Positions 1,445 to 8,475 of a DNA stretch of 8,475 bases are shown here, piece by piece. The stretch is taken from IMG/VR virus record IMGVR_UViG_2648501235_000008, one strand, 5' to 3'. A model generated the notes under the pieces. That model was not told the DNA's origin and did no database searches. It was given only the letters and a program-made list of their open reading frames with translations. The translations under genes and the position numbers were made by a program. The stretch's first letter is position 1; the number at the start of each line of letters is the position of its first letter. This DNA comes from a virus (taxonomy: Duplodnaviria; Heunggongvirae; Uroviricota; Caudoviricetes).

Positions 1445-2130
1445 GTAGCTTTTGGGAAGGTATTTTGTCATCAAGCATTTCATTTGCAATTATTGGATTT
1501 GTTTGTAAGGCTTTTTTACAACATATTGATAAAAGAGAGTTAGAATCATTTAAAAATAAGTTGAAATATGAAAGTGAACAGAGAATTAAAGAGGATGAAC
1601 GTGCTTATAATTTTAAAAAAGCAAGAGATCTTGAAATCGGACGTTGGGGGTTAACATTACTTAGTGCTGCAAATGGTTTTTTAGGAAGGCTATGTTATAT
1701 TAAAGATCACAATGACCTATCGTCGGATCAATATTATATTGATAGTACAAGATTCTATCTATGCCAATATTTTTGCTGGGTACATCAATTCAGGAAAAAT
1801 AGAGATTCATCTGTATTTTCACCAACTAATGATGAAATGTTAATAACTGAATTAATCAAAAATATTTCTATAGCCCTACGAGAGAACGATATTGGTTTTC
1901 CTTGTATTAGATCTCTTGAACAAAAGTATATAGGTGAAAGCCTTAGCATTGGTGCTGAATGTATGTCCTATAAAGATTTTATCGATTCTAAAGTATTAGA
2001 AAACTATGCACCTCTAAATGATTTTGTTGAAGCAATTCTACAAAATAATAATAAAGATTATATCGATAAACTCGTTATCCCATTCCAAGATCTCAAGACC
2101 AGATTTGATGCGGCATTACAAAATAAATGA
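1441..2130 (+). CDS. Hypothetical 229-aa protein with N-terminal hydrophobic membrane-anchor-like segment; operon partner of the upstream gene
   Basis: ATG at 1441 overlaps the upstream TGA (ATGA). Good SD GAGG at 1431-1434, 6 nt before the ATG. Residues about 6-27 (WEGILSSSISFAIIGFVCKAFL) are hydrophobic, followed by a charged, probably helical region. Same AT-rich composition as the upstream gene. No recognisable catalytic motif. Confidence 0.65.
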   Translation: MSSFWEGILSSSISFAIIGFVCKAFLQHIDKRELESFKNKLKYESEQRIKEDERAYNFKKARDLEIGRWGLTLLSAANGFLGRLCYIKDHNDLSSDQYYIDSTRFYLCQYFCWVHQFRKNRDSSVFSPTNDEMLITELIKNISIALRENDIGFPCIRSLEQKYIGESLSIGAECMSYKDFIDSKVLENYAPLNDFVEAILQNNNKDYIDKLVIPFQDLKTRFDAALQNK

Positions 2131-2148
2131 TTTTTTTACCTGCGCGCA

Positions 2149-2167
2149 ATGCTCTCCCCGCCTCGCC
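2149..2167. other. cos cohesive-end core of P2/P4 type
   Basis: Minus strand of 2149-2167 reads GGCGAGGCGGGGAGAGCAT, 17 of 19 identical to the P2/P4 cohesive end GGCGAGGCGGGGAAAGCAC as I recall it. It sits just beyond the psu stop, where P4 carries cos. Confidence 0.55.
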
Positions 2168-2190
2168 CGCCCGCTTTGCGGGGCGGTTTT
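2165..2190 (+). terminator. GC-rich bulged hairpin followed by TTTT, terminator-like, overlapping the cos region
   Basis: gcccgcccgc-ttt-gcggggcgg then tttt (2187-2190), 35 nt after the ORF2 stop. The stem has one bulge. It may instead be part of the cos recognition region. Confidence 0.3.
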
Positions 2191-2212
2191 AATGCAGTTG
2201 CACTGACACGCT

Positions 2213-2240
2213 CAGACCGCGCCGGGAATGGCGCGGTCTG
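2213..2240. repeat. Perfect 11-bp inverted repeat with 6-nt loop
   Basis: cagaccgcgcc (2213-2223), loop gggaat, ggcgcggtctg (2230-2240). No flanking T-tract on either strand. Possibly a cos-flanking terminase recognition element or an RNA stability hairpin. Confidence 0.5.
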
Positions 2241-2270
2241 CAGAAAATGAGGCAGGGAAACGCATGCAAA

Positions 2271-2301
2271 GCCATGCACCTTATCGATGCATGGCTTTTT
2301 T
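2271..2301 (+). terminator. Rho-independent terminator between the convergent cargo operon and psu
   Basis: Stem gccatgca (2271-2278), 9-nt loop, tgcatggc (2288-2295), then TTTTTT (2296-2301). An A-run upstream (2268-2270) gives partial bidirectional character. Confidence 0.5.
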
Positions 2302-2331
2302 CAGTAAAAACAGGCGGATTTTCGGGGAATT

Positions 2332-2904
2332 TTACACAGACTGACGTGATGCCAGTTGCGCACTTTTACGCGAAAAAATCATGTTCTGCGCAGGGGTGAA
2401 TTTTTCACGGCTGTCATCCACCGAAGCCGCGTCAGGCCTGAATCCGATGGTCGTTAAAATGTCGCTATCCTGTGCGGAATAATTAATTTTTTCACCCTTC
2501 GCAAGCCAGGACAGGAGGGCTTCACGCAGGGCATCTGTGGCACGCTGTATGGCACAGTTTCGGGCAATGGCCGTCAGCTCACTGTAGCCCATCAGCTCCG
2601 GTGCCAGTGCCGCCGCCAGTGCTGTGCCGTGCTGCTGCATAAAATCATTCAGCCGGTCGCGGATGCTGATGTGCTGAACGGCTTCATGCGAACGAATATA
2701 ACGACCGGCAGCCTGATTCACCTGCCATTTTCTGACTTCGATAATATTGCGTAATTCGTCCAGGCGACTGACGTTTCTTCCTTCCCCTGACAGAAGCCGC
2801 AGATATTCCTGTTCGGCCGCAGCCAGCTCATTTTTGCGTTGCAGCCATGCTGCTTTGTTATTCTGACAGGTGTCAAAGGCCTGCTGTAAGGCTGTGCTTT
2901 CCAT
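2332..2904 (-). CDS. psu: Psu, polarity suppression / capsid decoration protein of P4-like satellite
   Basis: 190-aa ORF, the length of P4 Psu. N-terminus MESTALQQAFDTCQNNKAAWLQRKNELAAAEQEYL matches Psu as I recall it. Last gene of a sid-delta-psu arrangement. Confidence 0.9.
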   Translation of the reverse strand: MESTALQQAFDTCQNNKAAWLQRKNELAAAEQEYLRLLSGEGRNVSRLDELRNIIEVRKWQVNQAAGRYIRSHEAVQHISIRDRLNDFMQQHGTALAAALAPELMGYSELTAIARNCAIQRATDALREALLSWLAKGEKINYSAQDSDILTTIGFRPDAASVDDSREKFTPAQNMIFSRKSAQLASRQSV

Positions 2905-2977
2905 CGTTATCTCTTTCTCATCATGCTGAAGAATAAAAATACGGTGTGCGGCGACGGCCGGTGTTAACCGGCAGCCC

Positions 2978-3478
2978 TCATTCCAGACGCAGCGAATATG
3001 ATTGTGTTTTTAAGCGTACTGGCGGCAGTTCCTGTTTTTCATGCAGGCTTTCTGCCAGTTCGTCCGGCGTGACCGGGCGGACAATAAAACGGTTGATGGT
3101 CTGAAGCGTTTTAAACACCAGACCACATCCCGGATCCGTGCACACATAAAAACGCTCGGTGACTTCCTGAGACAGACGCCGCGATGTTCTTGACAGTGCA
3201 AGGCCTTTACATCTCCGACAACAATATCCGGTAACAAGCATTCTTTTCGGGCGTTTCATACTGCCGGAGGCTGACGTCAGTGAATCGCGGTATCTCTGTT
3301 TGCCTGAAATGTATTCCATTCCTGAATCTTTACTGTCAGAGAAAAAGCTTTCACTCGCTTCAAATGTCGCAGAGCAATAAATATTCCGGCACTGTGCAAT
3401 CATTATCTTGGTGCCATCGTCCATGAAATGTGCGCGGCGGGTGTGAGCAACATGTCCACACGACGGGCAGTAAATCAT
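2978..3478 (-). CDS. delta: Delta, late-gene transcriptional activator with tandem Ogr-type zinc-finger repeats
   Basis: 166 aa with two Cys-rich Ogr-like repeats (CPSCG...C...YC and CCRRC...C...GC). Start overlaps the sid stop (ATGA at 3475-3478). Confidence 0.9.
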   Translation of the reverse strand: MIYCPSCGHVAHTRRAHFMDDGTKIMIAQCRNIYCSATFEASESFFSDSKDSGMEYISGKQRYRDSLTSASGSMKRPKRMLVTGYCCRRCKGLALSRTSRRLSQEVTERFYVCTDPGCGLVFKTLQTINRFIVRPVTPDELAESLHEKQELPPVRLKTQSYSLRLE

Positions 3479-4209
3479 GACAGCAGTCCTCTGGCCTTAA
3501 GCACTGCTCCCTGCTGGTCTATTTTGTCCTGCCACACCTTGCGCTGTGCCGGTGTGCCTGCCACCTCATAATCCATGTGAGGAAGTGTTGCCGCTGACAG
3601 TCCGGTCAGCCGGAGAACCGGCTCGCCGGTGAGGCTGATTTGCATCTGTTTAATTTTCTGTTCCAGCGATGATTTCACCTGCTGCATGACAGCCTTTTCC
3701 GGTGCGACGTAGCCCTGATGGCCGGTGGTGTTGGCGAGCGGATTTTCCTGTACCAGAATGCTCAGATGCATTGCCCGGACAAGCGCCTCACAGGTTTCAT
3801 TCAGGGCGTGTTCCAGCTCATGCTCTGCATACAGACTCAGAAGGTGATGATGTGCCTTCCGGTAGGCGGTGGCCGTGCTGTCACACGCCCCTTTCAGGCG
3901 TTCACGTTCGAAATTCAGCACCACGGCCAGATTGTCATATTCCTGTACCAGCTCCCGGCGTGCCACGCGCTCAATGTGGCGCTGTTTCAGCTCGTCGCTC
4001 AGGACACCACCGGCTGCACGAAAGGCCGTGCGCCAGTCGTCAGCGTCGTTTCCGTCGGCCTGCGCCAGCGCATTTTTTTCCTGCTCTGCCCGTTCAATGG
4101 CCGTGACGGTCTCATCCATCAGTCGGGCGTTCTCAAGGTGGGCGGCTCTGGCCTTTTCCAGTTGTGCCAGTGCGGGTTGCAGATATTCAGGGATGGTGTT
4201 GTCAGACAT
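3475..4209 (-). CDS. sid: Sid, external capsid size-determination scaffold protein
   Basis: The track ORF runs to 4275, but the internal ATG at 4207-4209 has a strong SD (GAGGAG, complement of 4217-4222, 7-nt spacing) and gives 244 aa beginning MSDNTIPEYLQPALAQL. Helical, Q/E/A/L-rich. Position upstream of delta fits P4. Confidence 0.85.
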   Translation of the reverse strand: MSDNTIPEYLQPALAQLEKARAAHLENARLMDETVTAIERAEQEKNALAQADGNDADDWRTAFRAAGGVLSDELKQRHIERVARRELVQEYDNLAVVLNFERERLKGACDSTATAYRKAHHHLLSLYAEHELEHALNETCEALVRAMHLSILVQENPLANTTGHQGYVAPEKAVMQQVKSSLEQKIKQMQISLTGEPVLRLTGLSAATLPHMDYEVAGTPAQRKVWQDKIDQQGAVLKARGLLS

Positions 4210-4243
4210 TTTCCGGCTCCTCGTCACTTCAGGTTGAGAAAAT

Positions 4244-4299
4244 TGTGACGTACACCGGACAACAACACGACGCATTGCAGATGTGCCAGCCCTGACACA
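4244..4299. promoter_or_regulatory. Divergent late-promoter region with two TGT-N12-ACA dyads (Ogr/Delta-type activator sites)
   Basis: TGT-gacgtacaccgg-ACA at 4244-4261 (right half extends to ACAACAACA) and TGTG-ccagccctga-CACA at 4282-4299. They lie 35-90 bp upstream of the sid start on the minus strand. Confidence 0.45.
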
Positions 4300-4379
4300 G
4301 GAGACTCATCCTCACACCGGCAAGCCAGGAAAAGGTCGCTGGAAAAAACGGCTTACTGTTTATTTTTTTTATATTTTAC

Positions 4380-4483
4380 TGTTCACCTCTGTTCACCATA
4401 AGAAAAAAGATAAGTAATACAGTAAGTTAAAGGGTGAACAATCGCAGTAATGACTGTTCACCGTCTGTTCACCACTGTTCACC
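4380..4483. repeat. TGTTCACC octamer iteron cluster, P4 ori-type (alpha-protein binding sites)
   Basis: Direct TGTTCACC at 4380-4387, 4390-4397, 4455-4462, 4466-4473 and 4476-4483; inverted copy GGTGAACA at 4433-4440. An AT-rich tract (about 4355-4378) is adjacent. The octamer matches the P4 ori/crr type I iteron as I recall it. Confidence 0.6.
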
Positions 4484-4587
4484 CGTTGATGGGCTTTTTG
4501 TGCTGTTTATTACTGTTTGTTTTTATTAATTCGCCGGGAATGAATAAGAAAAAACGATTTGTATTTCACTATAAAAATTACGAATTG

Positions 4588-4617
4588 CTTTAAGTGGCTT
4601 TAAATGACTTTAAGTGG
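4588..4617 (+). repeat. Three tandem 10-bp repeats upstream of vis
   Basis: CTTTAAGTGG (4588-4597), CTTTAAATGA (4598-4607), CTTTAAGTGG (4608-4617). Candidate regulator binding array; function not determinable from sequence. Confidence 0.5.
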
Positions 4618-4762
4618 AGATGAACAAAAAATACACAAGCATTGTAAGGCTGCCGGAACAAATCCCCCCTGTTGCGTCTGCTGAAAATATTCACAAAATA
4701 AAGCGCTACCCGAAGCCGGACGGACTTATCCGGTGCTGTATGGACATTAACGAGGTAGCCCG

Positions 4763-5029
4763 ATGCAAGCTGTTTTTTCTTCCCCGTCTCCCGCCCCTGT
4801 GACGCCACTGATGCCGCTGCCGGACATCACACAGGAGCGTTTTTTACGTCTTCCGGAAGTGATGCACCTGTGCGGCCTGTCACGCTCGACCATCTATGAA
4901 CTCATCCGTAAGGGGGAATTTCCGCCGCAGGTGAGTCTTGGCGGTAAAAATGTGGCCTGGCTGCACTCTGAAGTCACCGCATGGATGGCCGGGCGCATTG
5001 CCGGACGCAAACGGGGGTACGACGCATGA
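4763..5029 (+). CDS. vis: Vis / AlpA-family helix-turn-helix DNA-binding regulator
   Basis: 88 aa, the length of P4 Vis (orf88). Core [30 protein letters not shown] is a typical AlpA-family HTH. SD GAGG at 4751-4754, 7 nt before the ATG. Confidence 0.85.
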
Positions 5030-5625
5030 TGATGCCCGCTCTGCAAAAACTCCCTTTTTCTGGCTTGCCTTTTTCCGGCATTTGCGGATATAGTTTTTCC
5101 GCTGTCGCAAAATCGGCAGCCGGGCGTGGAAACCCGAGCAATCTAACGGCGACATATGACGCGCCATGCGTCTTTTTTTGTGTCGCAATCAACGCCACAG
5201 AGCGCCAGATTATGGTGTGGTGTGTGGTCAGTCGAGCAGATGGCACTCCGTGCATCCTGCCCGCGTCCGCTCATTATGCCGCAGAGTCAATGGTAGCTCA
5301 GGCGGGGCAGCCTCCGGGCTGGCCGGTATCCGTTAGAGCCGGTATTTCCACCCCCGTCTGGGCTATCGCCATCGAGCGTGGAAACTCCGGCGATAGCGTA
5401 ACCTGCTATCTAACGGAGGCTGCCATCATGGCTACAACCCTTACCCCTTCACACCCTGAATTTGTCTTTGTGTTTGCGGCTGTCCGTCGCGCAGACCGTC
5501 ATCCCCGTATCTGCATGCTTCGCACCGTCGCCGGTGATGAACGCAGTGCCCGCCGTTCCCTTGTCCGTGACTATGTGCTCTCCCTTGCTGCCCGTCTGCC
5601 GGTGGTGGAGGTGTCCCGTGCGTAA
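5026..5625 (+). CDS. 199-codon ORF spanning the immunity region (P4 orf199-like); translation uncertain
   Basis: ATGATGATG at 5026-5034 overlaps the vis stop (ATGA). The length equals P4 orf199 from memory. Composition is weakly protein-like and the frame covers the seqA/B/C-like RNA elements, so it may not be translated as a whole. Confidence 0.3.
5065..5094 (+). promoter_or_regulatory. Candidate sigma70 promoter, PLE-like
   Basis: TTGCCT (5065-5070), 18-nt spacer, TATAGT (5089-5094). Lies just downstream of vis and upstream of the seqA-like element. Confidence 0.3.
5124..5416 (+). ncRNA. Immunity-type region with seqA / seqB / seqC-like elements; candidate cI-type regulatory RNA locus
   Basis: Direct copies of GCGTGGAAAC (5124-5133, 5376-5385) and ATCTAACGG (5141-5149, 5408-5416). 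Between them, 5330-5353 (ccgttagagccggtatttccaccc) is the inverted complement of both blocks (CCGTTAGA / TTTCCAC). A 9-bp hairpin (5362-5370 / 5389-5397) encloses the second GCGTGGAAAC. Precise RNA ends cannot be set from sequence. Confidence 0.4.
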
Positions 5626-5905
5626 TAAAAAAGCCCCTCAGACCGTCTCAGCGCGTCATGACGCCCGTGAACACCTCAGCATTGAGGCTTACCATAAGCT
5701 CAACCGCGCCAGCGCCGTATCCCAGTTTGTTGGGGGTGATTTGATTCACCGTGAACTCTCCGGCCTGCATCAGCTCTACATTCCGCATATTTTCAGCTAC
5801 CTGAATGAAGATATTGATTTTGTGCTGAATGAGCTGAAAGCCAAAGGCCTGTGCCGCGATTTTCTCGCCCAGCAGAAAGACCGGGGAGACAGGACGCATG
5901 TTTGA
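5618..5905 (+). CDS. 95-aa protein in the position of P4 epsilon (derepression protein); identity not established
   Basis: GTG start at 5618 with SD GGAGG (5607-5611, 6-nt spacing). The 52 codons upstream in the track ORF (from 5462) are not protein-like and overlap the preceding ORF. The 3' end overlaps the next start. Confidence 0.45.
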
Positions 5906-6353
5906 TTTTCCCCAGCCCGGTGAGATTTACCGTTCTGCCGGTTTTCCCGATGTGGCCGTGGTCGGCATTCTGGAAGACGGTATTCCGTGGGAAATGCCGT
6001 ACCGCTGTCCGGACATTGTCTGGAACCCGTACCGCCGAAAATTCAGTATCCTTGTGCGTATCCTCACTGACGGGCGCACCACAGACATCCCGCTGGGGCG
6101 TTTTCTGCGGGAATTTACCTGTGACCGTCCTGACCTGTTCAAACGCAGCCCCGTAAACCGGCATGCGGTACTGAAAGAAATGGCCGGAGACCCGGAATTA
6201 CAGAAATGGCGGGAGAAATATCTGGATATTTACCCGCAGGACACTGTTCCGGCCAGCCGGGCGGCACCGGTGGCGCGGGAATGGCGGGAAATTCCCCGCA
6301 CGGAGCCTGACCCGGAAATCACCCCGGATAACAGTTACCGCAATTATCTGTAA
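5898..6353 (+). CDS. 151-aa protein, P4 orf151-like
   Basis: Length equals P4 orf151 from memory. Protein-like composition, same strand and operon as alpha. Start overlaps the upstream stop. Confidence 0.6.
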   Translation: MFDFPQPGEIYRSAGFPDVAVVGILEDGIPWEMPYRCPDIVWNPYRRKFSILVRILTDGRTTDIPLGRFLREFTCDRPDLFKRSPVNRHAVLKEMAGDPELQKWREKYLDIYPQDTVPASRAAPVAREWREIPRTEPDPEITPDNSYRNYL

Positions 6354-6488
6354 TTAAAAAACGACACCCGAAAAATTAAATGTGCGTATTCGCGCAGGGA
6401 TACGCACGTCTTCAGGAGACGCAGATATGCCTTATCAGTTAATGCAACCGGCACGGAATGCAGTCATCTGTCACAGGGAGGAAAACAA

Positions 6489-6809
6489 ATGAAAACACCC
6501 TTACCGCCCGTCTTACGCGCTGCCCTTTACCGTCGCGCTGTCGCCTGTGCCTGGCTGACCGTGTGCGAACGTCAGCACCGCTACCCGCATCTCACCCTTG
6601 AATCACTGGAGGCGGCCATCGCCGCTGAGCTGGAGGGCTTTTATCTGCGCCAGCACGGTGAGGAAAAAGGGCGTCAGATAGCCTGTGCCCTGCTGGAAGA
6701 TTTAATGGAATCCGGCCCCCTGAAGGCCGCGCCGTCGCTGTCCTTTCTCGGGCTGGTTGTGATGGATGAACTCTGTGCCCGTCACATAAAAGCGCCGGTA
6801 CTGCACTGA
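6489..6809 (+). CDS. 106-aa hypothetical protein immediately upstream of alpha
   Basis: Strong SD GGGAGG (6475-6480, 7-nt spacing). Stop lies 14 nt before the alpha start. Confidence 0.55.
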
Positions 6810-6823
6810 AGGAGAACAACACC

Positions 6824-8379
6824 ATGAAAATGAACGTAACCGCCACCGTCAGCCATGCGCTCGGCCACTGGCCGCGTATTCTCCCGGCGCTGGGGATTCA
6901 GGTGCTGAAGAACCGTCATCAGCCCTGTCCGGTCTGTGGCGGGAGTGACCGTTTCCGTTTTGATGACAGGGAGGGGCGCGGCACCTGGTACTGCAATCAG
7001 TGTGGTGCCGGTGACGGCCTGAAACTGGTTGAAAAGGTGTTTGGTGTTTCCCCGTCCGATGCGGCCGCAAAGGTGGCTGCCGTGACCGGCAGCCTGCCCC
7101 CTGCTGACCCGGCAGTGACGGCTGCCGCCGGTGCTGAAACAGACGCTGCCCGGAAGAACGCCGCCGCACTGGCACAAACCCTGATGGCGAAAACCCGTCC
7201 CGGAACCGGTAACGCCTACCTGACCCGCAAGGGCTTTCCCGGCCGGGAATGCCGGATGCTGACCGGCACACACAGAGCCGGTGGCGTGAGCTGGCGTGCC
7301 GGTGACCTTGTGGTGCCACTGTATGACGACAGCGGCGAACTGGTTAACCTTCAGTTAATCAGTGCTGACGGCCGTAAGCGCACCCTGAAAGGCGGACAGG
7401 TCAGGGGCACCTGTCACACCCTTGAAGGACAGAATCAGGCCGGAAAACGTCTGTGGATAGCGGAGGGATACGCGACCGCACTTACCGTGCATCACCTGAC
7501 CGGTGAAACGGTGATGGTGGCGCTTTCTTCCGTGAATCTCCTTTCTCTGGCCAGCCTTGCCCGGCAGAAGCATCCGGCCTGTCAGATTGTCCTTGCTGCT
7601 GACCGTGACCTCAGCGGTGACGGCCAGAAAAAAGCCGCCGCAGCCGCAGGTGCGTGTGAAGGTGTTGTTGCCCTGCCGCCGGTCTTCGGTGACTGGAATG
7701 ATGCCTTCACGCAGTACGGCGGGGAAGCCACCCGTAAGGCCATTTATGATGCCATCCGGCCACCGGCTGAAAGCCCGTTCGACACCATGAGCGAAGCGGA
7801 GTTTTCCGCCATGAGTACCAGCGAAAAGGCCATGCGTATCTATGAGCATTACGGCGAGGCGCTCGCGGTCGATGCCAACGGCCAGCTTCTGTCCCGCTAT
7901 GAAAATGGTGTCTGGAAGGTGCTGCCGCCACAGGACTTTGCCCGGGATGTGGCCGGGCTGTTTCAGCGGCTGCGCGCGCCGTTCTCCTCCGGGAAGGTGG
8001 CCTCCGTGGTGGACACCCTGAAGCTGATTATTCCGCAGCAGGAAGCCCCCTCCCGCCGCCTGATTGGCTTTCGTAACGGCGTGCTCGACACGCAGAACGG
8101 CACGTTCCACCCGCACAGTCCGTCACACTGGATGCGCACCCTGTGCGATGTGGATTTCACCCCGCCGGTGGACGGTGAAACGCTGGAGACCCACGCCCCC
8201 GCGTTCTGGCGCTGGCTTGACCGTGCCGCCGGTGGCCGTGCGGAAAAACGCGACGTGATTCTGGCCGCACTGTTTATGGTGCTGGCAAACCGCTACGACT
8301 GGCAGCTCTTTCTGGAGGTGACCGGTCCCGGCGGCAGCGGCAAAAGTATCATGGCCGAAATCGCCACCCTGCTGGCCGG
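6824..8379 (+). CDS. alpha: Alpha primase-helicase (zinc-ribbon, TOPRIM primase, D5-like helicase with Walker A); 3' part absent or interrupted
   Basis: SD GGAG at 6811-6814. N-terminal zinc motif CPVCGGSDRF...WYCNQCG; TOPRIM-like LWIAEGYATALTV and VLAADRD; Walker A GPGGSGKS at 8327-8346. The frame stays open to 8475, but the expected helicase-like character is lost after 8379. Not in the ORF track because no stop occurs in the window. Confidence 0.85.
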
Positions 8380-8475
8380 CTGTCTCTTATACACAAATCC
8401 CCACCCGGGGATTTGTGATGTCTGTCAGTCTGCTTTAGGGGGACTCTTTCCATCCGGTAGTTTCCTTCCTCCCCG
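8380..8475. mobile_element. Putative terminus of an IS4-family (IS50-like) insertion sequence
   Basis: CTGTCTCTTATACACA at 8380-8395 is identical to the first 16 nt of the Tn5 mosaic end and 15 of 16 to the IS50 outside end, from memory. It is followed by a perfect palindrome cacaaatcccc-acc-ggggatttgtg. The junction coincides with the loss of alpha coding character. Confidence 0.35.

Follow-up and report, generated by a model that had tools for sequence, protein, structure and literature searches.

Positions 2149-2167 of the window, the whole 8,475-nt stretch of viral DNA analysed here (IMG/VR record IMGVR_UViG_2648501235_000008), very probably (about 0.93) form the cohesive-end segment of a cos site belonging to a P4-like satellite prophage, and lie inside a 55-bp core. 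On the plus strand the segment reads ATGCTCTCCCCGCCTCGCC, and its reverse complement, GGCGAGGCGGGGAGAGCAT, is to be compared with GGCGAGGCGGGGAAAGCAC, which forms nt 1-19 of both P4 and P2 and is labeled “cosL; left cohesive end” in the P2 record. A preliminary description of the window had given a 17/19 match to the P2/P4 cohesive end, situated between a cargo operon and psu. The match is borne out by the P2 and P4 records, the cos sequence on which it was based being correct, with differences at position 14 (A>G) and position 19 (C>T), and the location holds as well, the stop codons of the cargo (2128-2130) and of psu (2332-2334) lying on either side. This is the single site within ≤3 mismatches in the window, where 0.01 are expected by chance (200 shuffles). 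The last base of P4 (11624 in the linear virion genome record) aligns to window 2168, directly abutting the 19-mer, and in the virion genome of P4 psu is the final gene ahead of the right end. The segment therefore occupies the syntenic position at the virion genome-end junction, downstream of psu as in P4, and the same position is found in satellites of six genera. The alignment of the P4 terminus and this synteny together support the proposal that the cos core marks the satellite genome end directly after the cargo operon, and we found nothing that contradicts the cos identification. The features of the window are collected in Table 1.

Table 1. Coordinates of the features in the window and the evidence for each
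Feature	Position (nt)	Strand	Evidence
IS1, terminal ~96 bp, ending in inverted repeat	1-96		matches IS1 copies (P1, SfIV and others) at 100% identity
RT(UG5)-nitrilase gene, 3' half; RT half missing	97-1444 (ORF 113-1444)	+	PADLOC RT_UG5-nitrilase
RT-associated transmembrane partner gene (RTasTM), 229 aa	1441-2130	+	PADLOC RTasTM, E=5e-164, full length
P2-family cos core, TGCATTAAAACCGCCCCGCAAAGCGGGCG / 19-mer / TGCGCGC	2142-2196	-	(near-)invariant columns in P2, 186, five other P2-like phages, P4 and window
Putative 19-nt cohesive-end segment GGCGAGGCGGGGAGAGCAT	2149-2167	-	17/19 vs P2 and P4 nt 1-19; P4 11624 at 2168
GC-rich imperfect hairpin + T-run (TTTT)	2167-2190	+	fits intrinsic-terminator consensus; inside cos core, downstream of cargo operon
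Perfect 11-nt inverted repeat CAGACCGCGCC/GGCGCGGTCTG	2213-2240		GC-rich palindrome, right-end (psu) side of cos
TGCAT motif cluster ACGCATGCAAAGCCATGCAC...GATGCATGGC + 11-nt inverted repeat	2258-2298		right-end side, just downstream of psu
psu, polarity suppression / capsid decoration gene	2332-2904	-	aligns to P4 psu 10888-11460, within 98.1% alignment
delta	2978-3478	-	collinear with P4; helper-exploitation gene, P4 late operon
sid	3475-4209	-	collinear with P4; helper-exploitation gene, P4 late operon
orf88/vis, epsilon, orf151, orf106	within 2168-8379		P4 alignment
alpha primase-helicase gene, 5' two-thirds	6833-8379	+	P4 alpha homology stops at 8379
ISEc13 (IS4-like) end, CTGTCTCTTATACACAA...	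8380-8475		cuts alpha; window 8376-8475 100% identical to ISEc13 copy ends in E2348/69

The satellite backbone and its cargo

Judged by its homology, the window comes from a P4-like satellite prophage, of which it covers a fragment. Collinear alignment with P4 (NC_001609 / X51522) runs from 2168 to 8379 (P4 positions 11624-5414) at 98.1% identity over 6.2 kb, up to the point where alpha, which P4 needs for replication, is interrupted (8379/8380, at about codon 516 of 777). Both ends of the window are IS ends, which suggests that it is a short-read contig broken at repeats. Within the backbone, Rfam matches were obtained to isrK (5101-5178, plus strand, 72.5 bits) and to C4 antisense RNA (5286-5373, plus strand, 76.2 bits), the latter corresponding to the P4 CI immunity RNA region.

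On the other side of the cos core, the cargo is an RT(UG5)-nitrilase plus transmembrane anti-phage system, recognised as such by PADLOC. The RT_UG5-nitrilase profile matches (E=0) at profile positions 516-958 of 958, so that the C-terminal 443 codons, the nitrilase half, remain; a search for Pfam matches to the two cargo proteins gave none. Intact relatives have a 2.9-kb gene annotated as “RNA-directed DNA polymerase” at the cargo position, homology to the RT gene of these relatives begins at window 95, and it is IS1 that truncates the gene, having removed or displaced its RT half. The RT(UG5)-nitrilase system is presumably inactive in the window copy because the RT half is missing. The same IS1/RT junction was absent from 5,426 complete E. 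coli genomes. The int side of the element lies outside the window, IS1 ending at nt 96, and its arrangement is seen in the relative NZ_AP027217 (L002), where the order is tRNA-Leu, int, RT, TM, cos, psu...alpha, with int directly upstream of RT and beside tRNA-Leu, and with att repeats 12,614 bp apart. The annotation of NZ_AP027217 marks its RT-nitrilase gene (7475-10350) as frameshifted. Past the satellite attR, this genome has a second tyrosine integrase (18763-20028), and the locus may be a tandem island at tRNA-Leu.

A fixed boundary between cos and cargo

The preliminary description placed a break in base composition at the cos site, and the composition of the window agrees: GC content is 32.2% from 98 to 2140 and 55.9% from 2141 to 8379, with a maximum-likelihood change point at 2138. 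The cargo stop codon lies 18 nt from the 19-mer cut. The same boundary is seen when window 2100-2340 is aligned to E. coli genomes, the alignments beginning at window 2141-2144 in nearly every case (~1,060 genomes, as judged from 40 alignments spread down the whole ranking of the 1,081 matching genomes); the exceptions are a few genomes with the same cargo. Among ~85 satellite loci, ~50 unrelated clusters of cargo-proximal sequence follow the cos site after the same TGCGCGC, that is, from 8 nt past the 19-mer. Variable content thus begins at a fixed cos-side boundary, as in the defence hotspot of P4-like satellites. The earlier proposal that this point delimits the foreign cargo from the packaging signal is correct, the boundary itself lying ~8 nt past the 19-mer and being general to the family.

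The 55-bp core and the elements flanking it

The preliminary description had suggested aligning 2100-2331 to the P4 and P2 cos regions, and the homology extends well past the 19-mer, over 55 bp with the helpers and over 6.2 kb with P4. In an alignment of the window, P4 and seven helpers (P2, 186 and five other P2-like phages), the window aligns without gaps to the core columns TGCATTAAAACCG.CCC...AAG.GGGC., the 19-mer and.GCGCGC., and the conserved 55-bp core of the P2/P4-family cos is found at window 2142-2196. On this alignment the core is the sequence common to P4-like satellites and P2-family helpers, and its size agrees with the core of 55 bp that PMC5694545 and PMC9594776 attribute to Ziermann & Calendar 1990.

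Beyond the core, the two sides of the site behave differently. On the left-end side, satellites keep ~7-8 nt (TGCGCGC) past the 19-mer and no more, and it is because only these few nucleotides are conserved that unrelated low-GC cargo can abut the cut site. The helpers have ~60 further conserved nucleotides on this side, reaching the portal-gene terminator, which P4 and the window lack. On the right-end side, the psu-to-cos spacer is kept together with the 19-mer and TGCGCGC in P4-like satellites of six genera; in Enterobacter, Tatumella, Citrobacter, Kluyvera and Photorhabdus satellites, conservation runs from the psu stop codon to the 19-mer and TGCGCGC, after which divergence is complete. 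These loci come from a Psu-based scan of genome contigs (6 loci) that served for breadth across genera, the statistics being drawn from viral contigs instead.

As for terminase-binding elements in the flanks, for which the preliminary description had proposed a search, conserved motifs were found on the psu side. A CCAG..CTGGCGCGG element in the 2213-2240 region is common to the window and the 186-type helpers at equal distance, and within 2258-2298 helpers and satellites alike show invariant or nearly invariant GTGCAT and TTGCATGCGT columns. On grounds of conservation, these motifs are candidate terminase-recognition elements.

Cohesive-end haplotypes and possible cargo exchange

The two substitutions in the window fall within a restricted pattern of variation. 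Across ~85 P4-like loci the 19-mer varies only at position 5 (A/T), position 14 (A/G/T) and position 19 (C/T), and the window shares the cohesive-end consensus of the P2-family helpers, GGCG(A/T)GGCGGGGA(A/G/T)AGCA(C/T), its differences from P2 and P4 being confined to these family-variable positions. In phage 186, which is known to act as a helper of P4, these positions are T5/A14/T19, and T19 is native there. The combination T5/G14/T19 followed by TGCGCGC is present in 19 IMG/VR helper contigs, identified by a P2 Q-type portal ~190 nt away, and in 85 IMG/VR contigs encoding Psu, that is, satellites (IMG/VR loci L103-L205). Since G14 and T19 are found natively in the cos of helpers as well as satellites, each base of the window 19-mer is native in some functional family member, and we rejected the idea that the substitutions are damage. 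Cos haplotypes hence seem to match between satellites and helpers. The window's own combination, A5/G14/T19, was found with cos flanks only in satellites (2 IMG/VR contigs and E. coli relatives), and no helper contig with this 19-mer was found in IMG/VR.

The exact 19-mer GGCGAGGCGGGGAGAGCAT is also present in two related metagenomic viral contigs from IMG/VR (L012, 4383-4401; L013, 1409-1427). These were left out of the comparison, neither having flanks with cos homology, and they are probably chance occurrences in a very large database.

Comparison of loci with one another suggests where cargos may be exchanged. The window and three further loci (L047, L061 and L085) are identical over 110 nt of psu-side flank and have four different 19-mers (AGT, AAC, TGT and AAT at positions 5/14/19) and four unrelated cargos; L030 and L039 are also among the loci with differing cos 19-mer haplotypes. 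Where the same cargo is found on divergent backbones, the last difference is at position 19 of the 19-mer in one pair (L052 vs L097) and one base past the 19-mer in another (L042 vs L205), and in uninformative pairs, which share the 19-mer, it is 4-12 nt before it. The exchange junctions map to ~30 nt centred on the cut site, as estimated from few independent events. Cargo “cluster 6” (L061/L062 vs L096) was examined as possible evidence that the 19-mer moves together with its cargo and was dropped, the shared cargo-side sequence being ~28 nt.

This haplotype pattern fits cargo swapping through the joining of cohesive ends or through recombination confined to cos, and point mutation at the three hypervariable positions could also have given rise to it. 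That the window 19-mer (A5/G14/T19) is itself a haplotype brought in along with the cargo, rather than a drifted P4 cos, we regard as a tentative and rather unlikely reading. If it were true, it would provide sequence-level support for the idea of Rousset et al. 2022 that cargos are swapped by cohesive-end joining or by recombination at the cut site, and cos would be both a packaging signal and an exchange junction. The 19-mer haplotypes could mark cargo-exchange junctions across thousands of satellites.

Proposed packaging and the present state of the element

Cleavage and packaging are inferred from what is known of P2 and P4 and from the record annotations, and we set them beside the homology, the synteny and the fixed boundary observed here. 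In the proposed scheme, the satellite would be excised and circularised, and a helper terminase of the P2 gpM/gpP type would recognise the core together with the conserved psu-side elements. On the model of the P2 and 186 record annotations, it would introduce staggered nicks 19 nt apart, between 2148/2149 on the plus strand and 2167/2168 on the minus strand, giving linear virion DNA with 5' overhangs of 19 nt. After cutting, 165 nt would separate psu from the right end, and the cargo operon would have its 3' end ~8 nt inside the left-end duplex. The earlier suggestion that the cargo sits at one terminus of the packaged linear genome is thus supported by homology, which would make it the left terminus. 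For the window copy such packaging is hypothetical, because it carries two IS insertions, IS1 truncating RT and ISEc13 cutting into alpha.

Two other readings of the site have to be weighed against this one. A GC-rich 19-mer could resemble the cohesive end by chance, or could be nothing but the intrinsic terminator of the cargo operon and no packaging site at all. The hairpin and T-run on the plus strand at 2167-2190 do overlap the site directly downstream of that operon, and the exact 19-mers in unrelated flanks in L012 and L013 demonstrate that isolated chance occurrences are possible. However, the chance expectation in the window is far below one, and the homology, which covers 55 bp with P2 and 6.2 kb with P4, ends exactly at the P4 terminus. 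Moreover, shuffled sequences fold as well as the hairpin does (z=-0.36), and although the hairpin is conserved in all satellites it is equally so in all helpers, in which the cargo position is taken by a portal gene that has its own terminator; any terminator role would therefore be additional to the cos function and not an alternative to it. The P4 alignment, the shuffles and the conservation in satellites and helpers refute chance or a terminator as the sole explanation, which we consider highly improbable, and a secondary terminator at 2167-2190 is possible within the cos site that we favor.

It is an even question, by contrast, whether this true cos homologue is by now a relic, belonging to a decaying prophage in which the site is no longer a genome end and the substitutions possibly reflect drift. 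Both ends of the window are the ends of gene-interrupting IS elements, one of which cuts alpha two-thirds of the way along; the absence of the IS1/RT junction from complete E. coli genomes suggests a recent, strain-specific disruption; and the addition of two IS copies would make the element longer than its intact relative (~12.6 kb). The 55-bp core is nevertheless intact, and relatives in which alpha is uninterrupted and RT is full-length (frameshifted in one of them) have an identical cos region (100% over 241 bp), so the substitutions predate the IS insertions. That G14 and T19 are native in helper cos sites and in many satellite ones likewise speaks against random decay. In any event, decay of this kind would bear on the current activity of the window copy and not on the identity of its sequence as a P4-like cos. 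We conclude that the element has an intact cos sequence and is probably no longer mobilisable as a unit.

Relation to known systems

The preliminary description had treated the arrangement of cargo and cos as new. This part of it does not stand, as the arrangement has been published down to the type of cargo by Rousset et al. 2022 (Cell Host Microbe, PMC9122126). These authors place the hotspot of P4-like satellites “directly adjacent to the cos”, depict the conserved and variable cos-proximal sequence in their Figure 1A, validated an RT(UG5)-nitrilase + 1TM system from the P4 hotspot as anti-phage, and speculate, without testing it, that cohesive ends could drive gene exchange. The cos/cargo arrangement is restated by de Sousa & Rocha (PMC8628076) and in a 2026 NAR paper (PMC13586616), and both P4-like satellites and P2-like phages are known to have their defence hotspots placed against cos (Rousset et al. 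2022; de Sousa & Rocha 2021/2022). The cos-adjacent defence cargo of the window is hence real, correctly interpreted and already known. Its value is mainly one of annotation: it fixes the virion genome ends of the satellite and the boundary between packaging signal and defence cargo (~2141), and it allows the cargo to be named as the known RT(UG5)-nitrilase + TM system; the window alone makes no open question newly testable.

Compared with the cos site of P4 (NC_001609 / X51522, junction nt 11624/nt 1), that of the window has the same position, 165 nt downstream of psu, and the same 55-bp core, and its psu-side flank differs by scattered substitutions only, two of them in the last 110 nt. Non-essential genes lie directly on the left-end side in both. 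The window differs in A14G and C19T, in having T rather than C as the first base after the 19-mer, and in its cargo, which is RT(UG5)-nitrilase + TM beginning 8 nt after the 19-mer, whereas P4 has gop/beta/cII, with gop 228 nt after it; the window element is also disrupted by IS copies. The P2-family helpers (P2 NC_001895, 186 NC_001317 and others) share the same 19-nt consensus and the flanks TGCATTAAAACCG..CCC...AAGCGGGC. and.GCGCGC., and to the right-end side of the site the TGCAT motifs and the GC palindrome of the window recur in the 186-type helpers. The variable hotspot of the helpers (old/tin in P2), in contrast, is on the opposite side of cos from the window cargo.

The locus itself is the known psu/cos-int hotspot of P4-like satellites (PMC9122126), with the same low-GC variable cargo adjacent to cos. 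There is no difference in kind from this hotspot, the window being distinguished by a system truncated by IS1 and by an int side that lies beyond its end. A further parallel is provided by the retrons Ec67 and Ec86, which, according to the account of Dodd & Egan 1996 in PMC5694545, in 186-related prophages take the place of the DNA that separates cos from a terminator. RT-encoding accessory DNA is thus directly next to a P2-family cos in both cases, with retrons occupying this position in helper-type prophages and a DRT-like RT-nitrilase occupying it in the satellite described here.
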